IMG/VR virus record: IMGVR_UViG_3300021400_000262
Location: 46,035-110,034 of that record
Strand: one strand, 5' to 3'
DNA length: 64,000 nt
DNA from: a virus
Taxonomy: Duplodnaviria > Caudoviricetes
Numbering within the stretch: the stretch's first letter is position 1; every line of letters starts with the position of its first letter. A program made the position numbers and the translations under genes. Under the pieces are notes generated by a model that had not been told where the DNA came from, did no database searches, and saw only the letters and a list, made by a program, of their open reading frames with translations. Positions 6,435 through 46,881 of the stretch are shown in pieces.

Positions 6435-6959
6435 ATGGCTAAAGTGACTTTTACAAAACTTGCTCTTAAAAAGAAAGAGGAAGTTAGAAATATTAAAATT
6501 AATGGTAATGATATTGAAGTAAAACAATATCTTCCAGTAAATGATAAATTAAATTTAATTGCGCGAGTTATTAGTGGAGCACATGATGAAAATAATTTTC
6601 CTAATCCAATAAAAATTGAAGTAATTGGTTCTATAGAAATTATTATGGCATATACTAATATTACTTTTACTGATAAGCAAAAAGAAGATATTGCTAAATT
6701 ATATGATATTTTAGATAGTAATGAAGTAATTGATCAGGTTATTGCGGCGATTCCAGAAGATGAGTATAATTTTTTAATTGAAGGAATTGATGAGACTGTT
6801 AATGCTGTTTATGCTTATTAGAATTCAGCTCTTGGTATTCTTGATACAATATCTCAAGATTATAGCAATTTAAATCTTGATGCTACTGAAATTCAAAAGA
6901 AACTTGCTGATAAAGATAACCTTTCTCTTGTCCGAGATGTATTAACCAAATTAGGATAA
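6435..6959 (+). CDS. Putative tail assembly chaperone (174 aa)
   Basis: AAGGAG RBS. Track ORF 6435-6821 extends through one TAG to TAA at 6957-6959. Immediately precedes the tape measure, so function is by synteny. Confidence 0.6.
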
Positions 6960-6995
6960 TTTTATTTAAAGTTTATTTAAATAAAATAGGAGTTA

Positions 6996-7034
6996 AGCGG
7001 AGTAGAGTTTTTAACTCTACTCCGCTATTTTTTT
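6996..7034 (+). terminator. Rho-independent terminator before the tape measure gene
   Basis: 14-bp stem AGCGGAGTAGAGTT / AACTCTACTCCGCT followed by a T-tract. Confidence 0.8.
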
Positions 7035-7087: not shown

Positions 7088-10000
7088 ATGGCTAAACAAC
7101 TTAATATTGATCTTAGTTTTAATGCGGATACTTCTAAAGCTAAAGCTTAGATAGCAGATTTGCAAAAAAGCTTAGATCAATTAATATCATCAACTATTAA
7201 AAATAATAATTAGCTTGGCATTGATAAAGAAATTAAACAAGCTATTGATGATGCAACCAAATTAAAAGTTGCTCTTCAAGCAGCTACTGATGCTGATACA
7301 GGAAAATTAAATTTAGCTAAATTTTCTGAAAGTTTAAAAAATAGTTAGATGTCTCTTTAGGCATATGCATAGCACTTAAAGGCTCTTGGACCAGAAGGAG
7401 AATAGAGCTTTTTAAAATTATCTAAAGCTATTGTTTCTGCTGAGACGCCTATGAGATAGACAAACACATTATTAAATAATATGTTTGTTACTTTAAAAAA
7501 TACTGCTAAATGGCAAATTTCTTCTAGTATTTTACATGGATTATAGGCAGGATTATCAGGGGCTTTTTCTTATGCTAAAGAATTAGATACCTCTTTAAAT
7601 AATATTAGAATTGTTACGGGATATGGTGTAGATGAAATGGCAAGATTTGCTGAATAGGCAAATAAAGCGGCTTAGGCATTAAGTACAACTACAACATCAT
7701 ATACCGATGCTGCATTAATTTATTATCAATAGGGTTTAAGTGATGAAGAAGTGCTTGGCAGAACAGAAACAACTATTAAATTAGCAAATGTTTCTCGTCA
7801 AAGTGCTGAAGAAGTTTCAGATCAATTAACTTCTATTTGGAATAACTTTTATGATGGAAGTAAAAGTCTAGAATATTATGCAGATGTAATTACTGCATTA
7901 GGTGCGGCGACCGCATCAAGTTCAGAAGAAATTTCTACTGGTCTTGAAAAATTTGCAGCTGTATCTAAAACTGTTGGTTTATCATATGAGTATGCAACTG
8001 CGGCCTTGGCTACAATTACAGCAACGACTCGTCAAAGTGCTGATACTGTTGGTACAGGTTTAAGAACATTATTCACTCGTTTAGAAGGTTTAAAACTTGG
8101 TGAAACACTTGAAGATGGCGTTGATTTAAATAAATATTCTGCGGCATTATCAGCTGTAGGAGTATAGATTTTGGATACATCTGGTGAATTGCGTAATATG
8201 GATGATATCCTTGAAGATCTTGGCGAAAAATGGCAACAATTAGGTCGAGATCAAAAAATGGCATTGGCATAGACTGTTGGTGGTGTACGTCAATATACCA
8301 ATTTAATTGCATTAATGGATAATTGGGACTTTATGCAAGAAAACTTAATTACTGCAAGAGGTTCTGAAGGTACATTACAACAATAGGCTGATATTTATGC
8401 TCAATCATGGGAAGCTGCTTAGAAGCGAGTGCGCGCAGCAGCACAATAGGTTTATAAAGATTTAATTGATGAAAAATTTTTTATTAGATTAAGTGATTTT
8501 TTAACTGGTGCTATAAATGGAGTTGATAATTTTATAAATGCCATTGGTGGTATTCCTGGGGCAATAGCTGGGGTTGGAGTTGTTTTAACGACAGTTTTTG
8601 GAAAGCAATTATCAGAGTCTGTTAATTCTGCAATGTATGAATTTTCTAGATTTACTGGTAAAGCAGAAGATGTTGCTAATAAGACTCGTTTATAGGCAAT
8701 GGATGCTGTAAATAGTTATTATGATACAACTGGAGCTTCTGGTGGAACGAATGATTCAGTAGCAAGTGCTTTATTAAGACAAGAAATAAATGATAATTAT
8801 GAATTATAGAAAATTACTTCTTAGCTGACAGAAGAACAAAGGGCTTTTGCATAGGCAATATTAGATTCAGCCGAAGCTTATGATAAATTAGCTATAGAGG
8901 CTGAAAAGACTTAGAAAGAAGCATCAAATGATTTAGGCGTTGCAAGAGGACAGTTGAGAGGTTCTTTAGGTGCTTCTGTTTCTGTATCTGGAGAAAGTGC
9001 AGCTTAGATTTCTAAAAATGGTTAGGTAATGTTAACTGATTTAGAAGAGACTTTAGCAGACTAGTTTAATGAAATGACTAATGGAGCTTATAAATTTTAT
9101 ACTAGTAGTTTAAAAGAAGCTGATGATGCTGCTAAAGAATTAGTTGTTGCTAAAAATGAATTAATAAATATTACTAATAAAGAGAATGTTTCTGAAGAAG
9201 AAATTAAATAGAAAAGAGAAGAAGTTGCTTAGAAAACACAAATTTTAACAGATAAAACAAAAGTTCTATAGTAGGCTAAAGATGGTTTGAAAGAAAGCGA
9301 ATTAACATTATCTGGTTCTTCACAAGAGTTAATTGCTTATTTAAAAGATTAGGGATTAATGACAGATGAAAATAAAGATAAAGTTTTAGCTTTTATTAAA
9401 GCCTTAGAAGGTTCAGAATCATCAACAGAAGAATTTATTCGTAAAACAAAAGTTGCATTTGAAAATTAGAATAGCATTCCTGATGAATTAGAAAAAATAA
9501 GAACAGGATTTCAAAATATTGGAACGGGAGCTGTAGGAAGTTTAAAAAGTATTTCTCAATTAGCTATGGGATTTACTTCTCTCAAAGGGGCAATGGATGC
9601 TCTTAATAATACAGATTTAACATTTTTTGAGAAATTTTCTAGAGTTTCAATGGGATTATCTATTGGAATTTCGTAGCTTGCAGCTGGATTTCCAACTTTA
9701 GTAAAAGGTTTGACAGGAATCGGCATTGGAATTATGAAATTAATTCCTGCCGCAAATGGAGCTGGCGCAGCATTATCAGCAGCTTTCGGTACTGCAGTAG
9801 GACCTATTGCAATTGCAGCTGAAGCAATAATCGCTGTTGGTCTTGCTATATGGGGGTTAAAAGCTGCTTGGGAAAACTTTACTCCAGAAGGCAAATTAGC
9901 TGTTGCTGAAAAAGAAGCTAAAAATGCTAAAGATGCTTATGATAAAGCAAAAGCTGCTCTTGATAGTTTTAAATCTGGATATGATAATTGGTCTTCTTTA

Positions 10001-13000
10001 TATGAAAAAACTTAGAAATTAAAAAAAGGAACAGATGAATATACAAATTCTATTTTAGAAGCAAATAAGGCTGCGCAAGATTTAATTGATAAATATGATT
10101 TAATAGCTGGTACAGATTATGAACTTGATGAAAATGGAGTAATACGTTTTAAATCTTCAGCTGAAAATAAATAGAGAAAAGAAACTAATGAAACTTTTAT
10201 TGAAAAAGCTAATAAAGATATTAATGAAAGAAATGAAAAAATTCATTTTAGAAGTGGTGAAATTGCTCAAAACTATGCTACTAGAACAGATTATGCTATT
10301 TATAATGGAAATGATATCGAAAATTTTGCTAGATAGTTGTCTTCTGGTTCTTTGACTGAAAGAGATATTTTATCATAGATAGCAACTTATGGTTTGGATA
10401 GAGAATCTTCTAATAATTTAATTAGTTCAATAAGAGATCTTGCTATAGAAATTTCTAATACAGAAAAAGCAAATAAAATTGATTTTTAGCAAGCTAGAAT
10501 TGCTGATGCTAGAATTTCACTAGGAGAAAATTATTCTGCTGGAATGGAACCTTTATTAAATAAATTTTTAAAGGATTCTCCTCGTGGAGGCCGTGGTGGA
10601 AGTATAGATGGCGAAGAAATATACGGTGATGCTCATCATATTGCAAAAATATATAATGATACATTAAATTCTATTAATTCAAATGATATTGATGATTCTA
10701 CTAAAAAACAATTAGCATATGCTTTAGCTGAAGCTTAGTTAAGTGGAAGTGAAAGAGTAGATCTTTCTGGAATTGATACTTCTAATTGGACAGAGACTTT
10801 TATAAAAAAGACCTTTGGAGAAAATGCTGAAAAAATTCAAGCTGCTGTTGATAGAAAAGCTAAAGAAATTGATACTTCAGTTTTTGAAAATAAAATTGCG
10901 GATGTCCATAAAATTTTAAATAAATTAAAAGATGACGCTGTTCTAGAACCTAAAGATTTCGAAGCTTTAAATTAGGCAAGTGATCTTACATCAGATTATT
11001 TTATAGAAATGGCTGATGGGACTCATAAATTAATTGGCGATGCTAAAGAGTTTTATAATCTCGTTCATGGAGAACAAGTAGATAATATAAAAAAAGAAAT
11101 TTCTCGATTAAGTGAAGAATCAAAAGAAATAAAAGATAGAAGAAATCTTTTAGTTGATGAAGAAACTGGAGAAACTAGATATTTAGGTAGTGAAAAAGGA
11201 GAAAATCTTTTATTTAGTAATGCTTGGGGTAGTGCTAATGCGTATAGTTTAGAGACATATAATCCGACTGTATTAGAGGATTAGTTAAATTTATTAAAAT
11301 CTTTTGATGATTTTGACTAGAGTAAAATTACCGAATGGGAAAAAGATGGTCTTTACAATAGAGATGAAATGCAAGCAGTCGCAGATGCTTTAAGTTAGTA
11401 TCGAGAACAAATTGTCTCTAGTAACGAAAAGACAAAAGAAATTGATTAGTCTATAGAAAAATTAAGTAATACAGCATTATTTGAATCAAAAACTTTTAAT
11501 GAATTAGATAATAATTTAGCTGATCTTGCATAGAGAACTTCTGGTAATATAGAATTAACAAAAGGTTATTAGGTTGCTTTTGATAATATTATAAAAACAG
11601 AATTATCTTCTATTGGAGTTTCAGAAGATGTTTTTGATTAGCATGTTAAAACCATAAAAAGAAATGCTGATGCAATAAAAGATGATGAAAATGCTGTTAA
11701 AAGATTGGCTTTGGCTAATTTAAGAGTCTAGTAGGGAATTAAATCTTTAGGATAGAATATTAATACTTATACAGAAAATTTAGTAGATAGTAAAAAAGAT
11801 ACTTTAGAATATGCTGAATCTATGAATGGTGTAAAAGATACAATGTCATAGATTCTTGGTATTTCTAAAGAAGACATATCTAATGATTTTATTTTAAAGA
11901 ATTTAGAAGATATAAAACTTGCAGCAGAAGATGATGAAGAAGCATTAGAACGATTAAGAGAAAAAGCAAATAGAGAAGTTGTTGCTAAAATTAAAATAGA
12001 AGATGAAGATTTAAAATCTTAGCTTGATTTAATTTTAAATGATTTAGAAGCAGAAGATTTACGAGATATTGAACTTGGAATGTCAATTAATGAAAATGAA
12101 GTTTTAACAAATTATGTAAATCTATTAAATAGAATGTCTGAAGAAGCTGCTGGTGCAGGAGAAGATATTTCTAGTGCATTACAAGATGCAATGGATAGCA
12201 TTAACTTTGATCCAGAAATTGATTATGATACCATTTCGGTTGGAGATGAAGATTTAACTGAATCTGCAACAGATGGATATGTAGAAATTCCAAGTATACA
12301 TACTTCAGCAGATGGAACAATAGAATCTACAACAACAAGAATACCTCTTTCAACTTATTAGCAAGCTCAGGCAAATGGATTAACAGAAATAAGAGTTCCA
12401 AGAATTAATGGAAAGAAAACAGTATCTAAAGGCGGAGTAAATTCTAATGCTAGCACAAGCAATAAAAGTGGTAAAGGTGGCGGCGGAGGCGGAAGTGCGC
12501 CAAAACCAGCTAAAAAGCAAAAAACTACTGATCCTAATACTGGTATAAAAGATATTGATCGCTATATCAAAATAAATTAGCAATTAGATGAAAAAGAACA
12601 TGAAAATACTATGGCTGACGCTAGATTAAAAGCTACTAGCGGAAGAAGTGCCATTAAAATAATGGAAGAATAGCTCGGTATTTTAAAACAGCAAAAAGTT
12701 TTATATGATGAATTAGCAAAAGAAGCTAAACAATATCGAGAAGATGATTTAAAAAAATTACAAAGTGATTTCGCTGATTTAAATTTTGAAATAGATCCAA
12801 ATCAAGAAGGTATGCTTTTAAACTATGAAGCTTTATTAAAAGCTGAAACTGAGGCTTATAATAAAGTTTAGGAAGAGTGGAATAAAAAAATTATTGAAGC
12901 TGAAAAAGCATACAATGATGAATTTGTCCGATTAGGTACGGCTGCTACAGAGGAAGCTTTAAAACCTTGGAAAGATGCTTTAGATAAAGTTAAAGAAGAA

Positions 13001-15709
13001 TCTGAAGAACCATTAGAAAAAGCTGCACAACGTTATGAATTATTTAAAAAAGATACTGACAAATATAATGATTCTGTTGAGCAAGAAAGAAAAGCCAATG
13101 AAGAAGCAATACAAAAAGCAAATGAAAAATATTCAAAAGAACTTGAAATAATTGCTAAAGGTGTAGAATTAAAAATTAAAGTTGATGATGCTGATTTACA
13201 ATATCTTGAATTTTTATTAGAACAAATTGGAGAAGGCGCAGATCGAGCTTTAGATAGAATGTCTAATTTTAGCTGGCAATTAGAAGATAATATGAACAAA
13301 ATTGATAAATATCAAGAAGGTTTAGATAAAGTTCTTGAACATGCTGGATTAGATTATTAGGATTTATTAAATGGTGATATTGATGGTATTGGAACTTTTA
13401 ATGAAGAAGATTTATCTAAAGTTGAAGAATATCGTGATGGTTTAATTGCTTGCGGAGAGCAGCTTTTAGAATTACGCAAAACTATTCTTGAAGAAGTTAG
13501 TGCTGCCTTTGATGAATTTAATTCTGATTTAGATAGAGCTATTGATAGAGTAGATCATCTAAGAAGATTTACTGAAACTTATAAAAATATTCTTGATATA
13601 GTTGGTAAGGATGTTGTCGATCCAACAGGAAGAACTACTAATATGCTTGCGCGAACCGCTTTTACGTAGGCACAAGCAAATGCAAATGCTCTTCAAACCC
13701 AGCTCGATATGCAACTTTCTGCGATTGATGATTATAATCGTACTATTGCAAATCTACAATCTGATAATAGATATGGTGAACATGATGATACTATTAAAGA
13801 ATTTAAGAATCAATTAAAAGAAGCTGAAGACGCATATGCGGCGACCCAAGAAGAATGGTTGGGAGCATGGGAAGAAACAGTCCAGGCTGCCGCAGATATT
13901 TATGAAGCTACAATGTTATAGATTATTGAAGATTTTGGTAAATCTATTTCCGGTTTAGCTGGTTCTTTAGAAGAATTAGATACTAGATTTAATAGAGCAA
14001 AGAGTCTTGCCGATACTTATGTTGATGATTATGAAAAGATTTATCAATTAAGTAAATTAAATCGTGATATAAATAATTCTATAGATGATACTGATAATAT
14101 TCGTAGCAAATAGAGATTAAGAGATTTACAAGAACAAATTAATGATCTTCAAGCCAGTGATAATCAAATGAGTGAATATGAGATTGAAAACCTTCGTAGA
14201 AGATACGAGCTGGAATTAGCATATCTTCAACTTGAAGAAGCCAGAGATGCTAAGAGCCAAGTTCGTATGGTCCGTGATAACGAAGGCAACTGGGGATATA
14301 TTTATACAGCTGATGAAACCGCGGTAGAAGAAGCTGAATAGAATTATGAAGATAAGCTTTATGCTATGCAAAAAGCTAATACCGAATATATAGAATCTCT
14401 TGAATCAGAAATTCTTCAACTTGAACAAGAGTGGTCTGATGCTTTAGCTGGAATAAGAGTACAAGATTATGCCAGCTATGAAGAATACCAAGAAGCCATC
14501 GACCGCACAAATGACTATTATACTCAAAAGTTAGACCAAACATATGAGTAGATGGGTATTGCTATTGACAATAATAAGGTTCTTTATGATGAAGATTGGG
14601 CTGCTTATTCTGCTGCTACTGGATATAAGATTTCTGAAGATGAACGTTTTATTGACGATTTTAAAGAAACAACTTTAAGTCTTACTACTGGATATTAGAC
14701 CATTGAAGATGCCTAGAATGCTTTTAGAGATGCTACTTTAAATGTTACCAATGATATGGTTTAGGCTTTTCAAGATTGGGAAAGAGATACTAATACTGCT
14801 TTAGAATTAGGCGGAACAGATATTTAGAATTATGCTGAAGATGTGAATGAAGCTATTAATGGTGATGGCGGAATTGTTGATCAAACTGAAGATGCTGTCG
14901 AAGCTGCTGAAACAATGTCTGATGAGTATTAGGATGCATTTACTGAAATTATTGACTATGCTGGAACTTTTTGCTCAGATTTTGATGATATTATTCAAAG
15001 AGTTATAGATGATTGTAATGAAGCTGTTGATGCTATTAGAAGATTAGTTGAAGAAATGGATAGAGAAAATGAGAGAAATAACAATAATAATGAAGATACT
15101 TACGCAAATTGGGAAGCCTAGCTTGATGAAGCAGGAAATCTTTCTGGTTGGAAAGCAAAAGATAGAAATGGTAATTATATAACTGGTTCAGGTAAAAAAT
15201 TATATTGGGGTGGTAATGAATAGATTTCTGGTTATACTACTACTTATGATTTTGATGCTAATGGAAACTTAATTATAGATGGCAAAAATGCTGTTGGTTC
15301 TGGTTTTGCTGGTAGCACTCTTTCAGAAGAAGAAAAAAGAAAACTTCTGAAAAAAGCTGCGCATGCAGATACTGGAATGTATACAGGAAACTGGGGATCT
15401 CCAGAAGGAAGGCTTGCTGTGTTGCATGAAAAAGAACTTGTTCTTAATAAAGATGATACCTCTAATTTCTTATCTGCTATTGGTATGATTAGAGATATTT
15501 CTAGCATGATTGATTTAAATTCAGTAACAAGTTCTAATTTAATGGCTTCTATGTTTGGAATTAAAGGAGTTTCTACTGGAACAGATACTCTTGAACAAGA
15601 AGTCACTATTCATGCAGAATTTCCTAATGTTTAGAATCATTCTGAAATAGAGGAAGCCTTTGATAATCTTATTAATAAAGCTTCACAATATGCTAATCGT
15701 AAAATTTGA
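7088..15709 (+). CDS. Tail tape measure protein (2873 aa, TP901-type core)
   Basis: Track fragments at 7751, 9710, 10544, 11009, 12080, 13709, 14366 and 15377 share one frame and end in TAG. N-terminal TMP core (ALGAATASSSEEISTGLEK...GTGLRTLFTRL), a hydrophobic segment near 9.6-9.9 kb, long acidic helical regions, and C-terminal GMYTG...LAVLHEKELVL. Ends in TGA at 15707-15709. Confidence 0.9.
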
Positions 15710-15780: not shown

Positions 15781-15821
15781 GGACAATATTGAGAAAATAA
15801 TCTAAATTATTTTTGATATAT
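15781..15821 (+). promoter_or_regulatory. Recurrent bipartite intergenic motif GG(A/C)CAA-N28-GATATAT (candidate late promoter)
   Basis: The same architecture recurs at 36143, 39040, 47099 and 50143, always shortly upstream of the first gene of a unit. Confidence 0.55.
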
Positions 15822-15854
15822 TTATAGATAATGGAGAGAAAGGAGGAACAAGCC

Positions 15855-18800
15855 TTGGGAGATAAAAGCGAACAATTATTTCAAGGAATAGAAATAATTG
15901 CAAAAGGGCTTATATCTGATTTAAAATTTAATAAAACCTCAGTATGTACTATTAAAGATACAAAAGAAGCTTCGCAAGGTAAATATTATGTTACTGATGG
16001 AACAAGTTATTTTTATGCATATTCAGAAAATACTGATTATGTAAAAGAATAGCAAGTATATGTAATGATTCCTAATGGCGATTATAATAATTAGAAAATT
16101 ATTACTGGTAAATATTTAGCGAATGAAAACGAATCATATACTTATTCAGCTCCTTTTAATTCTTTTGTAGATATAACTGGAAATCTTTATAATAGTGCTA
16201 TTGATGAAGTCCCAAAGTTAGATTCTTCTTTAATTGCGAATGGGGAAATTAAAGAAATTCTTTTATGGGAAAATAAAGATTCATTAAAAGGATATACTAC
16301 TTTAGGTGTTAAAGCAGATTTTAAATCTTTATTAAAAGAGTTTAATACAGTTGAAGGTACTTATGGATTAAGAATCGCTATTCGTTTTATTGATTCTACC
16401 AATAGAGCTAATTCACAAGTAAGAGTTATTACTTTTACGAATGAAGATATGTATGGTAATCCGTATAATTTTGAAACTTATTATACTCAAGAAAAATTAT
16501 TTACAATAGCCGATAAAGATAAAATTATTGATAGAATTTAGGTATACTTCTTTTAGGATAAAAACTTTAGAGCTTCAAATGGAGTCAATATTCCTGTAGC
16601 TACATTACCGAATCTTTTTATTAAGAATGTTTTTGTTGCTTTAGGATATGATTTAAATGGCTTTGGAGAAGATTAGGTTTTATTATATAGTTTAAATTCT
16701 GATACTTATGATGCATCTTATAGCTCTTTTGAAAATAAGAAAACTATGAATATAAGATGGATTCATAAAATAGATGATAATAATTTTGAATGTTATGCTG
16801 AAGAAAATGAAGAATTTTCAAATTCTTTAATCATACACTGGTATAAATATAATCTTTCAACTGGCGTTATAGATCCTCTTGCGGGTAATTTTTGGTAGGA
16901 AATACCAGAAGCAAAGAATAAATTTAAATATTCTATTTTTCCGAATACTATAGAAAGTAATGAATAGTATAAAGTAATTATTGAATCAATTCCTGATAAT
17001 AATATTGATGATGCAGAGTTAAATAATCTTGAAAATTTAGTTTAGGAAAAATATAGTGTTTTAAATGATTATACTGCTAGATATGGGAATTCTAATAACG
17101 AGATTGAAATGCAGTTATTAGAAAATGCTCGATAGGAATATGATGCTGCTGTTGAAGATTATGATTTTTAGAAAGCTTAGTTGTTTGCGGAAACCCAGTA
17201 TTTTGAAAGTAATGTTTTAACTTTTACTAATGAATCTTTAGTTGCTAATTATGCAAGTATAGATTTAATTAATGGTCTTTCAATAGAATGTGATTTAAAT
17301 GGTCAGAAGGGAATTTATAATATATATAATTCTCATAATGAATTAACTAATTCTAGTGAAGGCAATAAAATGAGATTAATGACTGCGGTTTATAATTCTA
17401 TTATAACTGGTCAAGAATCTCTTGATACTGCGGAAAAGATTTCTTGGAGATTCCCTTTAACTAAGACAATGATTCAAACTCCAGTCGATGGCAAAGAATA
17501 TAATACTGCCAATGGAGATGAATACTTTGAGGCTGCGGATGGTAGTTATTGTATTATCACGCGTGATGGTACGAAAGCTACTGGGGACATAGGATCGTCT
17601 TTCCCGAACGCCGCGAGTCAATATTTTAGAATTAAACCTTATTATGTTGAAGGTGCTACTGATAATATAATTACTTGTTATGTAACCAAGAACAGAACTA
17701 CTTATACAGCTTCAACTTCTCTTACCTTTGGAAATCAAGGAAATAGTGGAACAGATTTTACTTTTTTCCTTTAGTGGGAAGAAGGAAGTAATTGTATTTA
17801 TGAGAATGATGAAGATCCAATTTAGATTTTTGCTCATTTATACGATGAAGAAAATAATGAAATTGCTCTACGAAATGTTACTTTTGAATGGGTTAATCCT
17901 GATACGAAGTTTAGAGATTTTATTATTAATGAAAGTCCAATTACTTTCTGCAATTCTACTGGAAGCGAATCTTATTATAGTATAAGTGTTGGAGGTAGTG
18001 ATAGTTGTTATATTCATTATGATAGCATAAGAGAATATAAAGATGGTTTTTGGAATATATTAAAAGCGACTGTTAAAACAGGAGAATCTGAACCCGTTAC
18101 TAGTGATGGTTAGGAGCTTGGAGCGGAAGTTGTTTTAACAGCTTATTTATCAATACCTTTAACTCAAAGAAGAACTACTTCTTCTGGAACAGTTAATATT
18201 TTTTCTTCGGTTGAAGGTTGTAATAAAATAATTTATAATTCTTTAGGTTCTAATCCAGATTATTTTTCTGGTTAGTATAAAATCTTTTAGGGCGCTAATG
18301 AATATGATATTGATACAAATGGATATTCTTGGCGGATTTTAATTAAAGATTTTATGGATACTGCAATAGATGTAGATGAGTAGAATCATTTAAAGAATTA
18401 TTATCCATAGATTAAAAATAATTTTATTGTTCCTCCATCTATGTATTTTGGATTTACTGGAATATGTAGTGCAATTTGTGCAAATGATTTGGGGGATATT
18501 ATTTGGGCTTAGCCAATAGTCATATAGCAAGATTAGTATAGTTCAGCTTTATTAAATTCTTGGAATGGTAAATATACTGTTGATGAAGAGGCTGGAACTA
18601 TATTAACAACAATGTTGGGAGCTGGGTCTAAAGATGAAAGAAATAGATTTTCTGGAGTTCTTCTTGGTGATATAGATGATTCTGATAAAGGAGTCTTCGG
18701 TTATCATGAAGGTGCTCAATCTTTTGGATTTAGAACCAATGGTAAAGCTTTTATTGGTAAAGCTAATAAAGGTCGAATTGAATTCGACGGAAATTCTGGA

Positions 18801-21158
18801 TCAATTAAAAGTATGTCTTATAGCAAAGGCAATACTGGTATGTTAATTGATTTAGATGATGGTGTTATTGATATTTTAGGTTGCGAATATGCAAGTGTTG
18901 CGACTGTTTATGATAGTAGCATTGTCTATTGGTATTTAAATGAAGATGAAAAATGGCAATAGATAAATGAAATTTATAATCTTTCTGTATAGACAGCAGA
19001 AGATTTTAATAAAGGTCCTATTTAGTTAGCTACAGAATAGTCTAAGTAGGATTTGGTTTCACATGATGAAACAAGTCCTTATTATAATAAATTTTTATAT
19101 CCAATAGTAGCAGAGTATTATGATTATAATGAAACTTATTGGTATAAAGATGCTGATAATAATTGGGCTTAGACAAATGTTCCTGGTAATATTGAATTAT
19201 TGAGTGAAGATGCTTTTTGGGCTGGTGTTATAGGTCTTGCGAGCAATGGATTAGGAATATCTGTTTTAACAGATGAAAGCAGTCCTTATTATAATAAATT
19301 TTATACATTCTCTGATACGCTTCCTACTGGAGCTGATTTAAACGAATGCTTTTATTTAGATAATAATGAAGCTTTTGTTAATCCTAATACTATTCTTGTC
19401 TTGGAGGTGCGGACGGCCGCAGACTTCGCATTAGGGCCAGTTGAATTAGCAAGACAACAAAGAAAAACAGATAGAATTTTAGCTGATAGTAATAGAGCTG
19501 GTTATAATAAATTCTTTTCTGGATAGACAGTAAACGATTCAGATAATAATACAACTTATACAAAAACAGATAGTCGAGTAACTATTTAGGCATTATCACC
19601 ATATATTAAAGTTAATGAGTCTGGAAAAGATGTTTTTTAGATTGCTAAGGACGTGTCTTTTATTTAGACTAATGATTATAGTTCTAGCGAATTAACAGGA
19701 GCTAGAATTACTTTAAAAGGCGCTGATGATACAGTTAATAGTTCGATCAAGCCTTCTTTTGATATAAAAGCATATAGTGCTACTGGTGGAGTAAAAATGA
19801 GTTCCATTTCTCCTTTTTTAGTAGCTCAAGCAAGAGATAATAGTCACGATATAAATGGAGTTAGAGATTTAGAAAATTATCCTTATAAAACATTATTAAG
19901 TGTTGGCGATAATAGTTATTATTTACAATCTTTTAATTATGAAACTCCAACTTCTAATGCTGAAGATGGTACTGAAAACACTACCAATGGCAAAGGAATG
20001 AGAATTGATCTTGCTAATGGAAAAATTTTAGGATATGATTTTTCCTTGAAGGCACAAGAAAATTCTGGAGATTATAATGGTTCTTATGTGGCTATTAATA
20101 GCAATGGTAATTCTTATTTAAGAGTACATTTAAAAACAGTTTCTAGTGCTCCAGAATATGAACTTGTTACTTTTCCTAGTGCAGTAACATCAACTGCTAT
20201 GGGAGAAGAAGATGGAACTGGATATGTAGCTAATACTTATTATTATTATGATGAAAATACTAATAGTTATTAGTTAGCTACTGAAGGTTGGAATCCTAAT
20301 ATAACATATTATTAGTTAACAACAATACCCACTCAATTAAGAGATGTTGATTTAATTAATATAGGAAAAAATAAATTTTTATTACAATCTTAGAACTGGG
20401 TTTCTGGTCATTCTGGTACTTAGATTAATTTATCAAGAGGTAAAATAACTTCTTATAACTTTAATTTAAGAGCAGTTGGAACTGGAGGAACAATTTTTAT
20501 TAATAGTACCAATCCTACTTATCCTTTTAGAATTGAAGGTAATACAGAACAAAGTATTCAAAATAATATTACTTCAACTGTTGTTACTAATGTTGGTAAA
20601 AGTTATTTTAGGATAAAATGGAACGGAGATTTTATAGCTGGAAATAATACTAATAATTTGGAATATTCCGGTGGACGTTTTACTTTAAAAGGTGGCGTTA
20701 TTTCTGGTGGTTCTATTAATATTGGAAATGGATTTTTTAAGGCTAATGATGAAGAAGTAAAATTGGGTGATTGGCATGTTGATAGTTCTAATGGAGCAGA
20801 TGCTTTTTATTATGGAGATTGGGATGATTCTACTATTGGAATGGCAAATCCTTCTTCTTCTAATCATCCATATTATTTATGGGCTGGATGGGGAGACGAT
20901 TATAAACTACCTAATGGTGCTCATGCAATGTTAGCTACCAATAGAGATGGAACAGAAATTGCTAATTTAACTTTATATGGACCTACAAGTTTACATGAAG
21001 GTGGAACTCATTATTCCGGATCAACTTTAGGTTCAGCTTTAGATAATTTATATGATAGCATTGATAACTATGATACCTGGTTAGCACGAGGAGAATGGCA
21101 TAGAGAAATTATAGACCATGAAGAAATTTGTCATGCCAGAGGCCCAGAGAATGATTAA
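15855..21158 (+). CDS. Large tail-tip/central-fibre-like protein. Unspliced form is 1767 aa; exon 1 (15855-21061) of the predicted spliced forms.
   Basis: AAGGAGG RBS with TTG at 15855. Track fragments at 15831, 17181, 18612, 19200, 19797 and 20658 are in one frame, joined by TAGs. Gly-rich beta-repeat C-terminal half (GRIEFDGNSGSIKS...GMLIDLDDG; GMRIDLANG). First gene after the TMP. Confidence 0.75.
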
Positions 21159-21587
21159 AATCAGGATTAAATGGTGCTAGTAAAATTCCTTAAACTGCGG
21201 GGACACCCTTAGAGCTTTTACAACCAAACAAGTACAGGGATGTGCTTGCGGCGATGGAGTAACGGCCTCGGTATGGTAAAATCGTAAAAGATTGGGCAAT
21301 CAAACGCATCGAAATCTCTAGAACAGAGAGACGTTCAACGACTATAATAGGAACTCGAAAGAGATGGTATAGTCTAATCGCTTACGAAATGTAAGAGTGA
21401 AATGCAGAAATTAGTAGGCTGCTTTTAATGAAGGAGCTGAAGCTGGTTTTGTAGCTGCTTAGAGAGAGACACCCTGTGATCCAGATTGTTATTGCAACTA
21501 TGAATTTTGTGCAGATGATTGCGATACATGTAATAATGGAAATTGTGGGTGCAATAGTGGACAATGTGAACCAGATGATTAATGCTG
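21062..21587 (+). mobile_element. Group I self-splicing intron with no homing endonuclease. Predicted 5'SS after 21061; candidate 3'SS at G21587 (strong P10) or G21407.
   Basis: Core elements: P AACTGCGGGGA (~21193), Q-like GGGCAATCAAACGCA (~21294), R GTTCAACGACTATA (21333-21346), S ATGGTATAGTCT (21364-21375). Helices: P3 TTCCT/AGGAA, P7 GACTA/TAGTC, P8 CTC-GAAA-GAG, P9 CTTAC-GAAAT-GTAAG, and a P5abc-like extension. P1 pairs exon UAGCAU (21056-61) with IGS GUGCUA (21174-79) and ends in U.G. Confidence is high for the ribozyme core and lower for the exact ends. Confidence 0.85.
21408..21582 (+). CDS. Cys-rich cassette A (predicted alternative 3' exon, 9 Cys)
   Basis: Reads NQQAAFNEGAEAGFVAAQRETPCDPDCYCNYEFCADDCDTCNNGNCGCNSGQCEPDD* with TAG=Gln. 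In phase with exon 1 if spliced at G21407. Confidence 0.6.
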
Positions 21588-21852
21588 TAATTCTGATGAA
21601 AGTTATACAAGTGGTTCAAATTCTTTAAAAGGACGACTTTATTCTGATGGATATTCAGATGGATATGAAGCTTGGGATCCACCATTATATTGTCATCATT
21701 GTAATAACAATAAAATATGTGATGAATTTTGTGGGTGTGATATTGTAAATTGCGATTGTAATGATAATAGTCCTTGTTCTTGTAATAGATCTTATTGTGG
21801 AGATGATTGCGATGATACTCCTTGTTTTAGTTATGGACCTGGTGGAGTGTAA
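21588..21852 (+). CDS. Cys-rich cassette B (predicted 3' exon, 12 Cys)
   Basis: Reads NSDESYTSGSNSLKGRLYSDGYSDGYEAWDPPLYCHHCNNNKICDEFCGCDIVNCDCNDNSPCSCNRSYCGDDCDDTPCFSYGPGGV*. It has no start codon of its own, is in phase with exon 1 if spliced at G21587, has a 10-bp P10, and its stop lies 5 nt before the radical SAM ATG. Confidence 0.7.
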
Positions 21853-21857
21853 AAACA

Positions 21858-23153
21858 ATGATTTATATTATTAATAAAGGTAATAAAAAAATATTTAATA
21901 TTTTAAAATTACAAAAATATGATTCTTATAAAAGATATATTTTTTCTCCTTATATAATTAAAATATGGAAAGAAAACAATTTACTTTTGAGAAATCTCTT
22001 AACACAAGAAAGTATTATGTTAAAAAATAGTAATGAAGAAGATGAAAAATTCTTAATTACTCATTGGTTTAAAATAGAACAAGAATCAAATCCATATGAT
22101 CTTTTTTAGAAAATTAAAAAAGAAGGAAATGAATCACATAAAAATATAAATAATTACAATTTATTAACTGATTTTGATAAAGCTATAATTTATACTACTT
22201 TAGATTGTAATGCTAATTGTTATTATTGTTATGAGAAACATTAGTGCTTTTAGCGTAAAAATATGACTAAAGAAGTTGCTGATAAATTAATAAATTTAAT
22301 TATATAGAATAAACCTAAAAAATTTTTTTTCAGTTGGTTTGGTGGAGAGCCTTTATTTAATTATTAGATTATAGATTATATTATTGATAAGATAAAAGAA
22401 AATAATATTGACTATGTTTCATCTATGATTTCTAATGCTATTTTATTTACTCCTGAAATGATAGAAAGGGCAGTAAAAAAATGGAAATTAAGAAATATTT
22501 AGATTACAGTGGATGGGATATATGAAAATTATGAAAAAATAAAAGATGTCCCGAAAGGAAGCTTTGAAAGACTTGCAAATAATATAGATTTATTAATTTA
22601 GAATAAAGTAAAAGTCAGTATAAGATTAAATATTACTCCAGATAATTTACAAGAATTAAAAAAAGCTATTTTATTTTTTAAAAAATATAAAGGTAATCAA
22701 TATTTTAGTATTTATACTCATGAAATATTTGATACTCCACTTGATAAATAGAAAAAAATATTTTATAATAAAAGAGTATTAAATGAATATATACATTACT
22801 ATTGTGGACATGACCCAAAGATTATATAGTGGCAAGAAAAATGTTGTATGGCTGATTAGGGTAAATGTATCGGTGTTTTACCAGATGGTGAATTAAATAT
22901 TTGTGAACATTGTATAGACCATGATCACTTTTCAAATTTAGATTAGGATTTTTATGATATAAATGTTATAAATAAATTTACAGAAATATCTGATAGAAAA
23001 GAATGTCAATTATGTCCACTCAGACCGAGTTGTATTTTTTTACATGAATGTGGTGGTAGTAGTGGAAATCATTGTTCTTAGTATAGAGTAGAAGATAGAT
23101 TATTAGAACATAAATTAGATTTAATATCTTCTATTGAAAATAAATTAAATTAG
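21858..23153 (+). CDS. Radical SAM/SPASM-domain protein (~431 aa to the TAG at 23151; reads on in frame to 23570 if that TAG is Gln)
   Basis: CxxxCxxC motif TTLDCNANCYYCYE (Cys codons at 22206, 22218, 22227), WFGGEPL, ISN and QITVDG motifs. C-terminal SPASM-like Cys set CMAD..C...PDGELNICEHC...ECQLCPLRPSC....C.......C. GGAG RBS. Confidence 0.9.
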
Positions 23154-23174
23154 AGAAAAAGGAGATTACATCTT

Positions 23175-23570
23175 ATGATTACAAGAAATTTATATACCAA
23201 TTTAGATATTTATAACAAAGCAATGGCTCTTGTTGAGGCTTTTAATACAAAGGAAGGTAAAGAATTAAATTATCCTGTAAAGATTAATTATTATCTTCAG
23301 AAGAATATCAAGGCTTTTGTTGATGCTGCTACAGAGATCGAGCAAAAGAGAATTGAGATTGTTCAGAAGTATGGTAATAAGAAAGAAGATTCTGAAGAAT
23401 ATATCATTCCAGAAGATAAAATGGATGAAGCAGGAAAAGAATTACAAGATTTCTTTGAACTAGAGCAAGAGATTCCAGTTAGTATGTTAAAGCTAGATTG
23501 GTTTGATAATATTGATATGACTGCAGAGCAAGTTTCTGCGATTTCTTTCATGATTGAGGAAGAGGAGTAA
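23175..23570 (+). CDS. Small acidic phage protein (131 aa)
   Basis: Own AAGGAG RBS (23159-23164), no TAG, TAA stop. In frame with the upstream radical SAM ORF. Confidence 0.8.
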   Translation: MITRNLYTNLDIYNKAMALVEAFNTKEGKELNYPVKINYYLQKNIKAFVDAATEIEQKRIEIVQKYGNKKEDSEEYIIPEDKMDEAGKELQDFFELEQEIPVSMLKLDWFDNIDMTAEQVSAISFMIEEEE

Positions 23571-45100: not shown

Positions 45101-46881
45101 ATTATGGATTAACCAGATATAATTACAATCCTGCTACAGACTTTGAAACTGAAAATGGTATTAGAGTTAATGAAGGTAATGAATGGAATAGCCATATTAA
45201 GAATGGTGAGTTATATTATTATGATACTACTGAAGCTACTAACAAGACAATGATTAAAGATTTAGAGATGCTTTTAGCATTTATGAATTCTAATAACTAT
45301 GTTGGTACTGCTGAAAATAGTGGTATTCCTAATATTACTGGTTTAATTTATATTGATAATGATACTGCGGAAGGATTAAAAACTTTAGATGGCGAGACTG
45401 TAATTGATGAATATTATGTTCGTAATGTATTGCAGCCACAATATCCTGGTTTGAAATTCTTCTTTGCTAATTTAACAAATAATTATACTGCAAGATTTGT
45501 ATTATTAGATGAGGATAATGATAAACTTTATACTTTAATTGGTACTTAGACTGTTAGAGAAGGAAGATTTACTAATCCTATTACTGCTTATGGAGATATT
45601 TCTGATACTAAAGATGAATATGATTTCTATGGTTGGTCTAGTGATGCAGAAGGCAATACTATTCTTGTAAATGTTGATACTGGCGATACAGCTATTGATA
45701 TTTGGAATACAAGTAATGCTACTCTTGCGGTTAGTGGTACTTCTACCTACACATTCTATGCTATTTTCTCTGTACATAAGTATATTATGACATTTGTTGA
45801 TGGTAATGGCAATAGTGTTACTAAAGCAATAGTTTCTGGTGAAAGATTAACTGCTCCAGACAATTATTTACCACCAAAAGATGATAGTGAATTAGGCAAG
45901 AATGAAGCTGGAGAAGAACAAACTTATAGATTTATTGGATGGTCTTTATCAGAAACTGGTACTGTTATTAATTTAGCTAATTATAAAGCTGATAAAGATA
46001 GAAGATTATATGCTCAATATGAAGAAATTAGCGTATATGAAAATCCAATTAGCATGGAATATTTTAATGTAAGATAGGTCAACTATAATCAACAGTATAA
46101 TCCACAAGATCCAGATGCTAGTTACTATATTACTGGTTATGAAATTACTCCTAAGATGAGAGGAATTTTATCTGGCAAGATTACTATTCCTAACGAAATT
46201 ACTGTTAATGGAACCACATTACCAGTTATCTTATTAGGTACTAGTAGCTCTGAAGCTGGTCAATGGCAAGGAGCAACAAAGATATTCTTTGAGAATCCTA
46301 AGACACATCAGTTAAGAGGTATTATAGATAGTGCTTTCAGTGGCTCTACTACATTACAATATTTTGAAATTCCTTCTAATTTAAGATATATTGGCGCTAG
46401 TGCTTTTTAGAGCATAAGAACTTTAGCAATTCCTGAATTTACTAAAGCTCCAATTTATAGGATTGGAGATTATGCTTTCAACGGTTCTTTAACATCTGAT
46501 ACTTTAGATTTAAATAATCGTGAAGAATTAAATATTAGCCTTGGTGGTGATGTAATTTACCTTGGTTAGGGTAGCTTCAGTAATGCTTATGGTGGAGGTT
46601 ATTTCAGAGCATATGGTACATTTACCATTGGTTCTAATGATAATCCATCTAAGTTAACAGCTCCAGTCAATCTCCCAATTAGCCGTAATAACGGTGATTA
46701 TTCTCAGATTCATACTTTGACTATTTATTGCGGCGACCGCATTACCGAGTTCAGTAATAATAATGTTCTTTGGGCTGCTCAGGAAGCTGGTGGCTCAGCC
46801 GTATGGTTCTACTTGAGAAGTGGAGATACTAACTATACTGCGAAGGTTAATTTAATTGATGCTAGTGGCACTACACATTAA
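39163..46881 (+). CDS. Giant multidomain virion protein (2572 aa): LamG/ConA-like, CotH-kinase-like, LRR, InlB-B-like repeats, BspA-like LRR
   Basis: AAGGAG RBS with TTG start. Eight track fragments lie in one frame; TAA at 46879-46881. Motifs: MSIYLNGVLTG..DLYKLRVYN (LamG); VQGTSS..YPRRNYK, DSRGKN and FYDMDTQLG (CotH-like); YDFYGWS and YRFIGWS (B-repeat-like); IPSNLRYIGASAF (BspA-like). Confidence 0.8.

Follow-up and report, generated by a model that had tools for sequence, protein, structure and literature searches.

Predicted ribozyme-joined, cysteine-rich endings of a phage tail-tip protein beside a radical SAM/SPASM enzyme of the peptide-maturase type

Some radical S-adenosylmethionine (SAM) enzymes with a SPASM region, such as PapB, QhpD and CteB, link Cys sulfurs to carbons of neighbouring residues. 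Such cross-links are known from small natural-product peptides and from a single enzyme subunit, QhpC, the gamma subunit of quinohemoprotein amine dehydrogenase. In this case, QhpD forms Cys-to-Asp/Glu thioethers in a polypeptide that is kept in a protein complex. A different precedent is offered by the nested C/Nu3 genes of phage lambda, where the C-terminal part of an enzyme is also made alone from an internal in-frame start. Here, we analyse a stretch of 64,000 nucleotides (nt) from a virus of the Caudoviricetes (positions 46,035 to 110,034 of the IMG/VR record IMGVR_UViG_3300021400_000262), which is called the window below. In it, the gene of a phage tail-tip protein of about 1800 amino acids (aa) is followed by a putative group I intron, two Cys-rich cassettes (A and B) and a radical SAM/SPASM gene. 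This three-part module probably gives the tail-tip protein a post-translationally cross-linked ending. No account of such a modification on a virus particle turned up in a full-text search of the literature on radical SAM enzymes and phage tail or virion proteins.

The close loci, which were collected through homologues of the enzyme, comprise the window, L001, L003, L049-L053 and the partial L054. They share one order, namely the tail protein, a gap of about 700 nt in which no gene is called, and the enzyme. Cassette and enzyme are found together in 9/9 of them, and intron, A and B in eight; L054, which is cut at the contig end, shows one cassette. Translation of 21292-21855 with TAG as Gln bears out the shared architecture that the earlier note had described for A (nine Cys) and B (12 Cys). 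Cassette A ends in AAFNEGAEAGFVAAQRETPCDPDCYCNYEFCADDCDTCNNGNCGCNSGQCEPDD directly before its stop codon. Cassette B reads CCNSDESYTSGSNSLKGRLYSDGYSDGYEAWDPPLYCHHC...GPGGV up to its stop, and has two further Cys at its start besides the 12 that follow its Pro (14 in the open frame, 13 past the predicted acceptor). In both, a Pro comes after a short segment, FNEGAEAGF in A and YSDGYSDGY in B. This (F/Y)xxGxxxG(F/Y) segment is not a product of chance, because it is conserved in 7-8 related phages whose cassettes are 40-50% identical, as AYxEGxxxGY..PC in A and LKGRxYxxGYxEGY in B. The cores consist of about 25% Cys and 16-18% Asp, plus Gly, Asn and Ser, with almost no hydrophobic or basic residues, and Asp is enriched at +/-1 and +/-3 relative to Cys. 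Neither cassette matched any family in Pfam or NCBIfam. The ratio of nonsynonymous to synonymous substitution rates (dN/dS) between L001 and L003 is 0.08 for A and 0.15 for B, and 0.08-0.5 over the closer pairs; judged by these ratios, both cassettes evolve under purifying selection. In L054 (356-544; cut at its start), a different cassette ends in CSCQCQCECECQCQ after a YDKGYDAGYAAWDPP segment.

How the cassettes are reached by the ribosome becomes apparent from the eight complete loci. No start codon is found for A or B in these loci (in most of them, by one tally), and a stop codon stands immediately before the acceptor codon of A in 5/8 and of B in 4/8. Both cassettes open at a G in the second codon position (..AUG/Y, the slash marking the joint); therefore, the AU of exon 1 completes an Ile codon, or a Met codon in one locus. 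From the joint codon on, the translation is I-R-(S/G)-E-A-I-K.. for A and I-C-E-A-D.. for B. The acceptor of A, ..AAAUG/C, is conserved. That of B is ..AUG/YUGUGA(A/G)G.. in 7/8 loci, with ..AAUG/CUGUAAU in the window, and a G precedes the conserved TGT in 8/8. Readthrough of the TAA from A into B was also considered and is ruled out, because in 6/8 loci the two cassettes are not in the same frame. Comparison of the loci indicates that A and B are alternative C-termini (exons) of the tail protein and not genes of their own. Where a phage has no intron, the last domain of the homologous protein leads directly into a Cys-rich tail at the position of the splice site, for instance in ..NYILTN-CCGGGC.. 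The idea, already put forward in the earlier note, that the substrate is the C-terminus of a tail protein of about 1800 aa thus gains comparative support from the acceptors, the intron-less phages and the P1 covariation described next. The predicted products are 1808 aa (with A), 1838 aa (with B) and 1781 aa (unspliced, His-rich).

In sequence comparison, the element between exon 1 and the cassettes has the hallmarks of a group I intron (a P1 with a U.G pair, a P3-P7 core and a terminal G), and RF00028 matches positions 21125-21397 over its full length with 32.6 bits (E 2.6e-6), which is below the gathering score of 50. In 8/8 complete loci, an exon word, (U/G)AGCAU, base-pairs with a GGUGCU(A/C) that lies about 110 nt further on, and the first pair of this P1 covaries, being U-A (T..A) in three loci and G-C in five. 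Therefore, the 5′ splice site is placed after U21061. A G stands directly before both acceptors in 8/8 loci, and for L001 and L003 a P10 of 7-8 bp can form between the start of each exon (its first eight bases) and the nucleotides immediately 5′ of the guide. A first splice model, with the 5′ site at T21156 inside a TAA and the last intron G at 21397, where the Rfam alignment ends, was rejected because its P1 cannot form in L003, whereas the pairing of 21056-62 with 21173-79 covaries in all eight loci. When exon 1 is left unspliced, its frame stays open for another 31 codons of the intron, up to the TAA at 21156-58, and has a His-rich ending (IDNYDTWLARGEWHREIIDHEEICHARGPEND). Read by eye, the differences between L001 and L003 in this extension are mostly synonymous; for this reason, the unspliced form appears to be a third isoform, His-rich and Cys-poor, that is under selection.

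The intron core is the sole DNA of the region that resembles known phages in INPHARED. Its positions 21191-21348 are 72-73% identical to stretches of Enterocloster phage CB457P1 and of Enterococcus phages VRE9_1 and VRE9_2. These stretches are unannotated in CB457P1 and called 'hypothetical protein' in VRE9_1 and VRE9_2, and they are probably unrecognised introns.

The absence of start codons in most loci, with frames that open exactly at the acceptors, also bears on another reading, in which the cassettes would be free secreted peptides of a phage-borne, bacteriocin-type RiPP (ribosomally synthesised and post-translationally modified peptide), either translated by themselves or cut off the tail protein as a giant leader. 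Although the closest bacterial relatives of the enzyme sit with small free precursor peptides, and some phage fibres shed C-terminal pieces, this reading is very improbable: the Cys-rich stretch of the intron-less phages is the end of a tail protein of 680-1300 aa, and none of the close loci has a gene for a protease or an exporter next to the enzyme. A RiPP has a short, gene-encoded precursor with a leader and a core, of which the core is released by proteolysis. The present system does not fall into this class, because its cassettes lack a start codon, are joined to an exon of 1749 codons and have no protease gene nearby; it resembles a RiPP in the way it works but falls outside the definition.

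The enzyme of the window, P0001 (431 aa), starts at the ATG at 21858, only 5 nt past the TAA of cassette B (21850-52), with GGTGGAG upstream; the earlier note had placed its ribosome-binding site inside B. It matches PF04055 Radical_SAM with 66.8 bits (cut-off 29.5) as well as Fer4_12 (PF13353), and it has the CxxxCxxC motif for the SAM-binding 4Fe-4S cluster (Table 1); the core of its AlphaFold model superposes on anSME and CteB at Z 23. Both are as expected of the radical SAM superfamily, whose core is a partial TIM barrel. The SPASM pattern is present as C330-x13-G344-x4-C349, C383-x2-C386-x5-C392-x5-C398 and C406, against a consensus of Cx9-15Gx4C ... CxxCx5Cx3C ... C, from which it departs in one spacing (x5 in place of x3). 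Pfam's own model for SPASM does not match the enzyme; the profile alignment with CteB spans this region. At the N-terminus, where the earlier note had suggested looking for a RiPP recognition element (RRE) in the first ~100 aa, the AF2 model (predicted local distance difference test, pLDDT, of 90 as a whole) has an RRE-like domain that can be aligned with those at the N-termini of CteB and TigE. Its residues 27-96 form three strands and helices with pLDDT >90, and it has no Pfam PqqD match. The whole model is similar to CteB (Z 23.1, 370 aligned residues, with model residue 30 onward matching CteB from residue 1, so that the peptide-recognition domain at the N-terminus of CteB is included), anSME (Z 23.2), ChlB (Z 23.1) and TigE (Z 21.7). 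When a profile of 65 homologues was compared with solved structures, CteB came first (E 5.6e-28, 101 bits), followed by TigE (55 bits) and SkfB.

Assignment to a named family is a different matter. The top NCBIfam matches (TIGR04463, PapB, Clo7bot and CefB) are all maturases of Cys-rich peptides, and all lie far below the cut-offs. The best, TIGR04463, reaches 86.4 bits against a cut-off of 525, and PapB (NF047865) 81.6 bits against 340, which places the enzyme outside both families; the QhpD family TIGR03906 gives 40 bits against 453, and the SCIFF maturase TIGR03974 is not among the top 25 NCBIfam matches. Because the radical SAM motif, the SPASM pattern and the CteB matches are present while all family scores are below their cut-offs, the enzyme is, by sequence and model, a RiPP-maturase-type radical SAM/SPASM protein outside every curated family. 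With CteB, PapB and QhpD, which the earlier note had named as examples of SPASM enzymes, it shares the type, with CteB as the best solved relative, but not family membership. In PHROGs, such enzymes are labelled only 'radical SAM domain-containing protein'.

A genome scan found >550 relatives of the enzyme in gut and rumen bacteria. The best 80 were inspected and are 28-35% identical to the window enzyme, except L058 at 52%. At least 27 of these 80 lie just downstream of an open reading frame (ORF) of about 45 aa with a leader and a Cys/Asp-rich end, e.g. MKAYLEIVKFNNDVVTAS..C.C..DDC, and in L064, L113 and L136 the relative follows a protein of 660-1080 aa with a Cys-rich end. These three are on contigs of metagenome-assembled genomes from Lachnospiraceae and Eubacteriales, which points to possible hosts. 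These bacterial proteins score 112-143 bits against TIGR04463 and are also below all curated cut-offs. One relative, at 31% identity, is found in L067 (Prevotella sp. tf2-5, NZ_FOWK01000013.1), which is possibly a cultured strain; no precursor peptide was found there by the scan.

The link between enzyme and Cys-rich tails extends well beyond the close loci. In the distant phage loci with a full-length enzyme (24-33% identity), a Cys-rich protein adjoins the enzyme in 15/15. The Cys-rich part makes up the last 40-90 aa of an upstream protein of 290-1313 aa in 13 of them; the other two are L005, with two very Cys-rich upstream ORFs, and L008, with a downstream protein of 952 aa and 139 Cys. As a background, a Cys-rich end was seen in 5/72 other long ORFs of the distant loci. 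Two of the upstream Cys-tailed proteins match PF06605 Prophage_tail (Tal) and tail PHROGs. A reverse test used 15 viral loci found through the last domain of the tail protein alone. Three of these have Cys-rich tails (8-15 Cys), with the enzyme immediately downstream in 3/3, and the 12 enzyme-less loci have acidic Gly/Ser tails of similar composition with 0-1 Cys. Two more relatives, L055 and L056, were found through the gene of a 131-aa protein (see below); in them the tail protein, with 0-1 Cys in its last 100 residues, is followed directly by this gene, and intron, cassette and enzyme are absent. Overall, homologous tail proteins without the enzyme have 0-1 Cys in 14/14 cases. A survey of co-occurrence in both directions had been proposed earlier, and in the loci examined neither a Cys-rich tail without the enzyme nor a full-length enzyme without a neighbouring Cys-rich protein was seen. 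These observations support a linkage of the enzyme and the Cys-rich tails, in presence and in absence, across many phage lineages.

Some further tails and neighbours were also recorded. The enzyme-less tail proteins of L140-L151 end in acidic Gly/Ser/Asp-rich tails of 10-95 aa without Cys, and a flexible acidic tail seems to be the ancestral or an alternative state of the tip. In L005 (2304-3913), L008 (5550-8405, on a 255-kb contig) and L041 (5194-7707, on a 435-kb contig), the neighbour of the enzyme is Cys-rich as a whole protein (238-952 aa, 43-139 Cys) and contains short repeats such as CxCDxxxC. Finally, the phage contig of L015 (467 kb) has a radical SAM gene with a partial match and, about 2 kb further downstream, an ORF of 55 aa (6836-7000) with a Cys/Asp/Asn-rich end; this ORF looks like a free precursor peptide within a phage.

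The pairing of enzyme and Cys-rich tails also speaks against a view in which the Cys/Asp-rich tails would bind metals or form disulfide knots by themselves, and the radical SAM gene would serve another purpose and only travel along with the tail genes. Presence and absence go together, whichever of the two is taken as the start, and they do so in lineages with enzymes of no more than 25-33% identity; in addition, the bacterial relatives are placed like precursor-peptide maturases, and the cores are nearly free of the hydrophobic residues with which a fold could be built. Metal-capped tips are known in other phage spikes and would be a precedent for this explanation, which we nevertheless regard as very improbable.

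As the product of the enzyme, a thioether is favoured because Cys separates enzyme-linked from enzyme-free tails, because Cys thioethers are what its nearest characterised relatives and the families ranked highest produce, and because the Asp-rich surroundings match the substrates of PapB and QhpD. Alternatively, the same enzyme and substrate could be involved in another chemistry, such as oxidation of Cys to formylglycine or a thioaldehyde, epimerisation, C-C cross-linking, or help with the loading of iron-sulfur (Fe-S) clusters or metal. Equally similar SPASM structures, namely anSME, ChlB and TigE with the Z scores given above, do carry out other reactions, and no cut-off of a curated thioether family is reached. 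Nevertheless, this alternative is rather unlikely, given that the best solved sequence relative is the thioether-forming CteB (101 bits against 55 for TigE), that the top-ranked NCBIfam families all act on Cys-rich peptides, and that Cys alone distinguishes enzyme-linked from enzyme-less tails of otherwise similar composition.

Table 1. Features of the tail-tip module in the window.
Feature	Position	Strand	Remarks
Tape-measure gene	7088-15709		upstream of tail-tip protein exon 1
Tail-tip protein exon 1	15813..21061	+	1749 codons + 2 nt, TAG=Gln; ORF list
P1 exon strand UAGCAUU	21056..21062	+	pairs with internal guide sequence GGUGCUA 21173-79; U21061 makes the U.G pair
Group I intron, cassette A joined (candidate)	21062..21404	+	343 nt; RF00028 match, P1 covariation
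Intron removed when cassette B is joined	21062-21584	+	predicted
Cassette A exon	21405..21582	+	AU/C completes Ile codon, then 58 codons + TAA
Cassette B exon	21585..21852	+	AU/C completes Ile codon, then 88 codons + TAA (21850-52)
N-terminal RRE-like domain, aa 1-96	21858..22145	+	AF2 model, alignment to CteB
CxxxCxxC motif (CNANCYYC; C117, C121, C124)	22206..22229	+	invariant in 65 homologues
SPASM region (C330, C349, C383, C386, C392, C398, C406 and G344)	22845..23075	+	invariant or at least 90% conserved
Junction TAG (Gln) AGA AAA AGG AGA TTA CAT CTT	23151..23174	+	Shine-Dalgarno AGAAAAAGGAGA, also translated RKRRLHL
131-aa acidic, helical, TAG-free protein	23175..23570	+	C-terminal module of 570-aa fusion

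The enzyme frame contains no TAA or TGA. It does not end at 23153, as the earlier note had assumed, since the TAG at 23151-53 is read through and the frame ends at 23570. It is open into the next gene in 9/9 loci. The fusion is real and conserved, because 5/9 junctions have no stop-like codon of any kind (e.g. CAG CAG ATG in L003) and at the remaining four the TAG lies opposite Lys or Gln in the alignment. The compared junctions thus show an enzyme fused in frame to a 131-aa protein, with a total of 570 aa; P0002-P0014, the 13 nearest protein clusters, likewise all measure 567-574 aa. Across loci, the 131-aa part has 0-1 TAG codons and the enzyme part 4-14. Because a strong ribosome-binding site has been kept at the junction, the 131-aa protein is probably translated separately as well, starting at its own ATG and in larger amounts, and in the enzyme-less relatives L055 and L056 its gene stands alone. 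It matches phrog_1401 (function unknown); no Pfam family matched it, and no solved chain aligned with it above Z 5. By analogy, the 131-aa module may tether the enzyme to the assembling tail.

The record from which the window is taken is a virus record of 110 kb with an estimated completeness of 61%. ORF lists made with both codes differ strongly: with translation table 11 the region consists of short ORFs, and with TAG as Gln it becomes a one-strand tail module of giant genes. The reassignment is verified locally, because Gln215 of the enzyme family, which is invariant in 17 close homologues and at least 90% conserved in 65 (bacterial ones included), is encoded by TAG in the window. Under this code, a frame of 1781 codons (15813-21158) comes after the tape-measure gene and before the cassette region. 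The final ~130 aa of exon 1 form the 'GDWHV..YLWAGW..LDNLYDS-I' domain, and the gene order agrees with that of related loci whose upstream gene matches PF10145 PhageMin_Tail. No Rfam family matched the window at its gathering threshold, and no tRNA genes were found in it. Among the phage genomes of INPHARED, the enzyme matched one short fragment only and the tail-protein domains gave no useful match. As the matches were limited to this fragment and, for DNA, to the intron core, no cultured phage with this system was found. The G+C content is 19-25% in the radical SAM part (21858-23150), 30-37% in the adjacent tail genes and about 43% in the intron; the low value of the radical SAM part suggests a separate origin or a very different codon use.

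A sequence of events can be proposed from these elements. The group I ribozyme after the last domain of the tail protein would join exon 1 to either acceptor and so give C-terminus A or B. Each ending would then offer a conserved Tyr/Gly segment, which may act as the internal leader suggested in the earlier note and be recognised by the enzyme, and a core with about 25% Cys and 17% Asp, together with Gly, Asn and Ser. The product of the next gene, with its predicted RRE-like domain, SAM cluster and two auxiliary-cluster sites, would bind the C-terminal region of the tail protein late in infection of an anaerobic host. Abstraction of H atoms could then link Cys sulfurs to neighbouring carbons, most likely in Asp/Asn side chains, as in PapB, QhpD and CteB. 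In this manner, a floppy, oxidation-prone tail would become a compact knot, resistant to redox changes and proteases, at the distal tip. The nested fusion with its internal ribosome-binding site, similar to lambda C/Nu3, might serve to bring a few enzyme copies to the assembling tip. The samples behind all loci are from gut or rumen, in keeping with an oxygen-sensitive enzyme, and a redox-inert staple would suit particles that leave an anoxic host. As a tentative proposal, possible rather than probable when taken in its entirety, diverse phages of anaerobes would have taken a bacterial RiPP maturase and grafted a Cys-rich core onto the C-terminus of their tail tip; the tip knot would be stapled without disulfides, in this clade a self-splicing ribozyme would pick between two knots or a Cys-free end, and the fusion would deliver the enzyme.

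Several points weigh against a thioether-stapled ending. Canonical P10 pairing is weak for the acceptors of the window itself. For every named maturase family, the score of the enzyme falls far short of the curated cut-off (86 versus 525 and 82 versus 340 bits), and radical SAM/SPASM enzymes do many reactions; for instance, TigE, the second-best structural match, makes cyclopropylglycine and anSME oxidises Cys. The Cys/Asp/His/Asn composition of the tails suits metal binding, and no leader motif runs through all three groups, namely the phages of this clade, the more distant ones and the precursor peptides of bacteria. Regarding the association, the three positives of the reverse test (Fisher exact p = 1/455) were the search seeds, and many loci are mutually related, so that the counts overstate the number of independent events.

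If a cross-linked ending is indeed formed, it would be a new type of virion maturation, with a covalent thioether knot at the receptor-facing tip, and would explain the orphan radical SAM genes of gut and rumen phages. It would also mean that RiPP enzymes accept very large protein substrates, which would be useful for protein stapling. Moreover, a ribozyme with alternative acceptors would be tied to diversity of the tail tip, and possibly of host range, with one gene yielding diversified tips.

Among the systems described at the outset, CteB (a SCIFF/ranthipeptide maturase, PDB 5WGG/5WHY) and PapB are alike in having an RRE-like N-terminal domain, a radical SAM core and a seven-Cys SPASM region, and in substrates that are rich in Cys with nearby Asp or Thr. 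They differ in that identity is only about 17% and the scores are far below the family cut-offs. Furthermore, CteB and PapB act on a peptide of about 45 aa, whereas here the candidate substrate is the C-terminus of a virion protein of about 1800 aa, with no leader peptidase or exporter, and the enzyme is fused to a tail-module protein. The nearest non-phage relatives, the uncharacterised maturases of Prevotella, Lachnospiraceae and Oscillospiraceae from gut and rumen, have 28-35% identity over the whole length and Cys/Asp-rich cores, and they do not belong to any curated family either; however, the precursor peptides found with them are free ones, each with a leader and a start codon of its own. 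QhpD with QhpC is a precedent for a radical SAM/SPASM substrate that is not released as a natural product, although QhpC is a small separate subunit and non-viral, and the window enzyme scores far below the QhpD family cut-off. In lambda C/Nu3, as here, an enzyme carries a protein that is also made separately, which by analogy could target it to an assembly intermediate, but that pair belongs to a head module and not to a tail module, and the 131-aa partner has no known fold or function. Thus, the kind of enzyme is already known, while the large virion-protein substrate, the delivery by fusion and the alternative cores selected by a ribozyme, as read from these comparisons, are new variants.

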